Assembly: GCF_003334255.1 (NCBI RefSeq)
Contig: NZ_QOWU01000232.1
Reading direction: 5' to 3' (one strand)
DNA: 486 bases
DNA from: Escherichia coli
GTDB taxonomy: Bacteria; Pseudomonadota; Gammaproteobacteria; Enterobacterales; Enterobacteriaceae
The notes under the pieces were generated by a model. It did no database searches. It was not told the DNA's origin and saw only the letters and a list, made by a program, of their open reading frames with translations. Shown piece by piece: positions 1-486 of the stretch. Both the position numbers and the translations under genes were made by a program. Every line of letters starts with the position of its first letter. The stretch's first letter is position 1.

Positions 1-486
1 GAAGCTGCGCAGCGTTTCCCGGTGCAGGCGGTCGCGGGTGTACTCCACCAGCGGTGTGTCGCCGAGTTTCATGCCTGACAGCCAGCCGCTGCCGTAGGTC
101 AGCCATTCCACGGCGGGCAGGCTGTCCGGTATACAGCGGTTCGCCAGTCCCTGTGCGTTGTACGCATGTCTGGTCTCATGCTGCCAGAGCAGTTCATTCG
201 TCTGCGGATGATGCACCGTCAGGTGTTCACTGGCGAGGCGGCCTTTACTGTCATAACCATAGTGCACCGTCACCCGGTGCCCTTCGCTGATATGGCTGAT
301 GTCTGTCAGCCAGCCGCGTTCGTCATACTGCCACCGCTCTGCGGTTTCGCCATTCACGGTGCGGTGCGTGAGGCGGTCTGCTTCGTCATAGTGCCAGTGG
401 GTGACCAGCCCCTCATCCTCGCTGCGGATAAGTTTGCCGGTCAGGTCGTGGTGATAACGCTGTGTGCGGCCGTCAAAGCCGGTTTC
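1..486 (-). CDS. Rhs-family YD-repeat protein, internal core fragment (partial at both 5' and 3' ends; 162 codons, frame set by position 486)
   Basis: Minus-strand frame beginning at position 486 is open across the entire window, with no stop codon and no start required. The translation contains recurring YD-repeat motifs: RYHHDLTGKLI, HWHYDEADRLT, WQYDERGWLT, HYGYDSKGRLA, YNAQGLA, YGSGWLSG, YTRDRL. These match the Rhs/YD consensus (G-x3-R-Y-x-Y-D-x2-G-R-L) at roughly 21-24 residue spacing. I recognise this from memory as resembling the enterobacterial (E. coli-type) Rhs core; no database search was run, and the specific paralogue cannot be assigned from 162 residues. Confidence 0.9.
25..471 (-). 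repeat. Array of about seven tandem degenerate YD (Rhs) repeat units, defined at protein level within the Rhs core CDS
   Basis: Repeat units in plus-strand coordinates (encoded on minus strand): 427-471 GRTQRYHHDLTGKLI; 367-411 GLVTHWHYDEADRLT; 304-351 GETAERWQYDERGWLT; 232-282 GHRVTVHYGYDSKGRLA; 142-186 WQHETRHAYNAQGLA (degenerate); 64-111 VEWLTYGSGWLSGMKL (degenerate); 25-63 GDTPLVEYTRDRL. Spacing between the Y-D anchor positions is 22, 21, 24 and 31 residues for the first five units. Confidence 0.8.

Follow-up and report, generated by a model that had tools for sequence, protein, structure and literature searches.

An internal YD-repeat segment of an rhsC-type core gene of Escherichia coli, found with three different downstream ends

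The rhs elements have been described in Escherichia coli K-12 since 1984, and RhsC of this strain is a member of the RhsABCF subfamily (PMC2935791). In solved Rhs effectors the YD repeats build a closed beta-sheet barrel round the C-terminal toxin. Its plug is an aspartyl-protease domain, whose motif of the DPxGL type cleaves the toxin free (PMC8636562). In the Rhs toxin/immunity organisation, DPxGL also marks the boundary between core and tip (PMC3150448).

The whole stretch of DNA analysed here, 486 nucleotides long and hereafter called the window, is 100% identical (486/486 bases) and in frame to rhsC (b0700) of E. coli K-12 MG1655. It is the reverse complement of rhsC nucleotides 1999-2484 and covers codons 667-828 of 1397. 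The window is almost certainly part of the interior of an E. coli Rhs core gene with the rhsC-type allele, and corresponds to residues 667-828 of K-12 rhsC/b0700. Since it maps in frame and at full identity inside rhsC, it contains no start, stop, core/tip junction or immunity gene, in agreement with the initial annotation, which had seen neither a gene boundary nor a toxin tip nor an immunity gene. The gene is an ordinary one, already known and annotated, and nothing in it is new; the window alone cannot show whether its own copy of the gene is intact.

In K-12 the gene order is kdpFABC-ybfA, rhsC, ybfB, the orphan ybfO, ybfC and ISAs1/H-repeat remnants. The K-12 gene is a complete frame of 1397 codons, and the whole protein scores 2683.5 bits against the NCBIfam model NF041261 (RHS element core protein; cut-off 2000). 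Towards the end of the core lie PF03527 (aa 1143-1179) and TIGR03696, the Rhs-associated core domain (aa 1170-1247), and the core closes with the motif PISNIDPLGL (aa 1238-1247). The last residue covered by the window is aa 828, 410 residues short of this motif, and the window lacks PxxxxDPxGL as well as the shorter DPxG, so that the earlier placing of this DNA upstream of the core/tip junction stands. The G+C content is about 0.61 in the K-12 rhsC core (0.57-0.68) against 0.34-0.44 over the tip and ybfB.

The minus-strand frame 0 of the window is open across all 486 bases and encodes 162 aa, starting ETGFDGRTQRYHHDLTGKLIRSEDEG... The initial annotation had read in it canonical YD repeats of an Rhs core, and had named PF05593 and TIGR01643 as the profiles to check; both models matched, and the reading was further upheld by NF041261 and by solved Rhs shells. 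NF041261 aligns with window aa 1-162 over model positions 675-836 of 1261 (E = 2.4e-103), with a score of 347 bits that cannot reach the cut-off of 2000 bits, which is set for the whole protein, as the window spans 162 of the 1261 positions. TIGR01643 (YD repeat) matches aa 13-52 with 22.4 bits against a cut-off of 15.8 (E = 1.2e-4), and the Pfam RHS repeat PF05593 matches aa 14-48 (E = 2.8e-5) and aa 54-88 (E = 1.5e-3). A motif scan found the four canonical units YHHDLTGKL, WHYDEADRL, WQYDERGWL and YGYDSKGRL at RhsC aa 677, 697, 718 and 742; they are spaced 20-24 aa apart, and degenerate units then fill the rest of the window. Solved Rhs structures matched by the window sequence are Tse5 (8cp6, the best match, E = 2.4e-20), 8qja, 8h8a, Tse15 and 7q97. 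Within the degenerate part, the conserved stretch WLTYGSGWLSGMKLGDTPLVEYTRDRLHRE aligns with the shells of Tse5 (8cp6, residues 577-731) and 8qja (residues 1374-1523). Table 1 lists the features of the window.

Table 1. Features located in the 486-nt window (positions are those of the window)
Feature	Position	Strand	Basis
Internal coding fragment, rhsC-type core gene	1..486	-	Open frame, 100% identity to K-12 rhsC, NF041261
Four canonical YD units, window aa 11-84	235..456	-	PF05593, TIGR01643, motif scan
Degenerate shell repeats, window aa 85-162, including conserved WLTYGSGWLSGMKLGDTPLVEYTRDRLHRE	1..234	-	NF041261, alignments with solved shells
Most rhsC-specific core patch (gene nt 2201-2300)	185..284	-	21/113 discriminating sites within 100 bases
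Chi octamer GCTGGTGG, coding strand	45..52	-	Chance expectation of 0.04 in the window

From these alignments we infer a role of the window in the shell, and thereby in encapsulation. It would encode about seven YD-repeat beta-hairpin units, which together with the rest of a core of about 1,250 residues would form the closed beta-sheet shell round a variable C-terminal toxin. The aspartyl-protease plug ending in PxxxxDPxGL, far downstream of the window, would then cut the toxin free. The segment itself would be structural wall and contribute neither catalysis nor specificity. For RhsC, autocleavage and the toxin/immunity activity of the tip and YbfB are likewise features that we infer from the literature.

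The occurrence of the window was assessed in 5,426 complete E. coli genomes by megablast. A homologue is present in 3,881 of them, with a median of three copies, almost only on the chromosome. At the best place in each record, identity to the window is at least 99% in 595 records, 95-99% in 953 and 90-95% in 2,332. The 30 best matches listed are all 100% identical, and 28 of these 30 are annotated as rhsC, most of them in K-12 derivatives.

Comparison of the K-12 cores showed that rhsA and rhsB are almost identical throughout, while rhsC departs from both in patches. The 3741-nt core holds 113 sites that discriminate rhsA from rhsC, and 31 of the 113 fall in the window, which therefore identifies an rhsC-type core allele and not a generic core. 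The window is the most rhsC-diagnostic part of the core; sliding identity is 0.91 at gene nt 2101-2400, around the patch given in Table 1. This patch looks like a divergent foreign or older tract rather than a positively selected one, because pN/pS over the whole window is 0.34. Movement of the rhsC-type patch from one rhs locus to another is seen in strain CFSAN061761, in the mosaic gene at the rhsA site. That it may be an exchangeable shell-wall allele with a function of its own, such as a loading or recognition surface, instead of a neutral gene-conversion tract, seems very improbable. The Chi octamer in the window may bear on rhs genes as recombination hot spots, for which one octamer is weak evidence. 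The rhsC gene carries two octamers GCTGGTGG in the same orientation (positions 6216 and 8016 of the K-12 locus, L006).

The identical 486 bases were found with three different downstream ends, in K-12, in strain 300709 and in strain CFSAN061761. K-12 and strain L73 share the first arrangement, in which the RhsC tip and ybfB are followed by the orphan ybfO and ybfC; the rhsC gene of L73 has an identical window and an internal stop elsewhere. The second arrangement is that of strain 300709, where the same chromosomal site holds an Rhs gene of 1399 aa (L007, 5285-9484) with ybfC directly after it. Residues 923-1399 of this protein equal YbfO 1-477 at 100%, and the RhsC tip and ybfB are deleted. 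Read from its sequence, the 300709 gene is a natural example of the loading of an orphan tip by recombination. The same deletion/fusion outcome has been shown experimentally for Salmonella orphan Rhs toxins (PMC3967940), and was proposed as 'C-terminal displacement' (PMC2935791). The YbfO-type core end, found in ybfO (L006, 10221-11654) and in the 300709 Rhs, is PVQYIDSMGL. Here DSMGL replaces DPxGL, with a serine instead of a proline after the catalytic aspartate.

The third arrangement, in CFSAN061761, is an Rhs gene (L008, 5672-9484) at the rhsA site, between yibF-selA-selB and yibA. This gene is interrupted by IS3 just past PVTNTDPLGL, after which come a remnant of the RhsA-type 'polymorphic toxin type 34' and yibA. 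Its informative sites are of the rhsA type to about nt 500, of the rhsC type from nt 561 to about 2700 and mostly of the rhsA type from nt 2704, a pattern that indicates a gene-conversion mosaic.

The tips tell the same from the other side. Of the complete genomes, 2,778 carry DNA for the RhsC tip with ybfB, 2,711 of them at 99% identity or more; this DNA is thus far commoner than the window allele at the same threshold (595 records). A query stretching from the window through ybfB (L006:7582-10103) was fully covered in 2,415 genomes with 96-100% identity. In the remaining sampled genomes the partial matches mostly stop at query positions 1733-1747, and the last base of DPxGL is position 1743. 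Core allele and tip are linked many-to-many, and the links break at the known junction. The initial annotation had held that this DNA cannot name the toxin/immunity pair of its gene, and three ends on one window, together with one tip and ybfB behind many core alleles, give it reason. The simple equation of an identical window with the rhsC locus and the RhsC toxin was ruled out by strains 300709 and CFSAN061761, by the tip counts and by the breaks at the junction. A short read from the core, even one that is 100% identical on the most paralogue-specific patch, names neither the chromosomal site nor the toxin/immunity pair, because the cores are recombination mosaics of paralogues and the tips are swapped at DPxGL.

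The tip of K-12 RhsC (aa 1248-1397) has 150 aa with 9 Cys, reads ETLKCIKPLHSM... and is followed by ybfB, whose start coincides with the rhsC stop (tip and ybfB: L006, 9325-10103). The tip matched no toxin family in Pfam or NCBIfam, and YbfB matched no family in NCBIfam. The 108 aa of YbfB include two or three segments of strong hydrophobicity, around aa 1-25 and 39-77. These segments suggest that YbfB is a putative membrane-embedded immunity protein, and the RhsC tip perhaps a toxin acting on the envelope.

Regarding delivery, aa 2-20 of K-12 RhsC, which include a literal PAAR, cover just the final 19 positions of the PAAR model PF05488, and faintly (E = 0.18). DUF6531 follows at aa 46-123 (N-terminus and flanks: L006, 5584-5950). 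A longer RhsC, starting further upstream and thereby regaining a full PAAR domain, was ruled out by stops directly 5' of the ATG. Within about 5 kb upstream and 8 kb downstream of K-12 rhsC, no vgrG, hcp or eag is annotated. The window contains no PAAR domain, and from it the delivery routes that the initial annotation had named, T6SS or contact-dependent, cannot be judged.

The openness of the minus frame is by itself weak evidence of coding. Mononucleotide shuffles of the window (G 152, C 147, T 118, A 69) had at least one fully open frame in 278 of 5000 cases (5.6%), so the frame is only mildly unusual; shuffles are open at this rate because A, which every stop codon needs as read on the + strand, is scarce there (69/486). 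The same scarcity accounts for the near-open frame 0 of the + strand, which has a single stop at codon 26 and stays open over the remaining 136 codons. From these two figures the frame could be taken for an accident of composition, or the true gene could be sought on the + strand. Against this reading, the minus frame matches the RHS core model at E = 2.4e-103, its G+C by codon position 1/2/3 is 0.66/0.44/0.74, and its pN/pS against rhsA or rhsB is 0.34, as expected of a real coding frame. Neither strand of the window has an RNA family match in Rfam at a permissive threshold, and the K-12 annotation carries no antisense gene or feature at this locus. A chance frame is thus ruled out by the homology and the pN/pS, and a + strand gene or RNA by the scarce A, the Rfam null result and the K-12 annotation; the probability left to either is negligible. 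It is homology, with the substitution pattern, and not openness that we regard as decisive in establishing the minus frame as real.

With the rhsC-type core segment on the minus strand as the preferred reading, the question becomes what stands around it and whether it still works. The segment could belong to another arrangement, either a fusion with the YbfO tip and ybfC or an rhsA-site mosaic with an RhsA-type tip and yibA; both 300709 and CFSAN061761 carry the window at 100% identity. The rhsC annotation of 28 of the 30 listed identical matches, mostly in K-12 derivatives, points the other way, and counts as a prior only, the genome collection being a biased sample. On this balance another arrangement is unlikely. 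More weight falls on the reading that this copy has become a relic, silent or decaying, its window intact and its gene unexpressed or undeliverable. Genes with an identical window are in fact broken by an internal stop in L73 and by IS3 in CFSAN061761, and K-12 rhsC has no vgrG or T6SS gene beside it and only a remnant of PAAR. K-12 is not known to have a T6SS, which points the same way. Yet K-12 rhsC keeps a complete frame of 1397 codons that scores above the equivalog cut-off, the substitutions relative to the paralogues show purifying selection (pN/pS 0.34), and the tip and ybfB module is kept at 99% identity or more in 2,711 genomes. A relic is therefore a serious possibility that we nevertheless consider rather doubtful.

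Compared with known systems, the rhsC-type core segment is nearest to K-12 rhsC (NP_415229.1 / WP_000015200.1), with the same 486 bases, frame and residues and no difference within the window. K-12 rhsA and rhsB belong to the same core family, share its numbering (667-828) and align with the window gaplessly, at 93.6% nucleotide and 92.6% amino acid identity. The RhsDE subfamily is more distant: rhsD has a homologous core with 78.8% nucleotide and 80% amino acid identity to the window, and the core of the rhsE pseudogene is homologous with 81.3% nucleotide identity over 299 bases. The solved T6SS effectors, namely Tse5 (8cp6), the Rhs-Vgr fusion 8qja, Tse15 (8uxt), RhsA of P. protegens (7q97) and Rhs1/Tre23 of Photorhabdus (7pq5), have full prePAAR/PAAR or VgrG modules, whereas K-12 RhsC, distant from them in sequence, has only the faint PAAR match and DUF6531. 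The window nonetheless aligns within the beta-sheet shell regions of these effectors, as with residues 577-731 of Tse5 (E = 2.4e-20).
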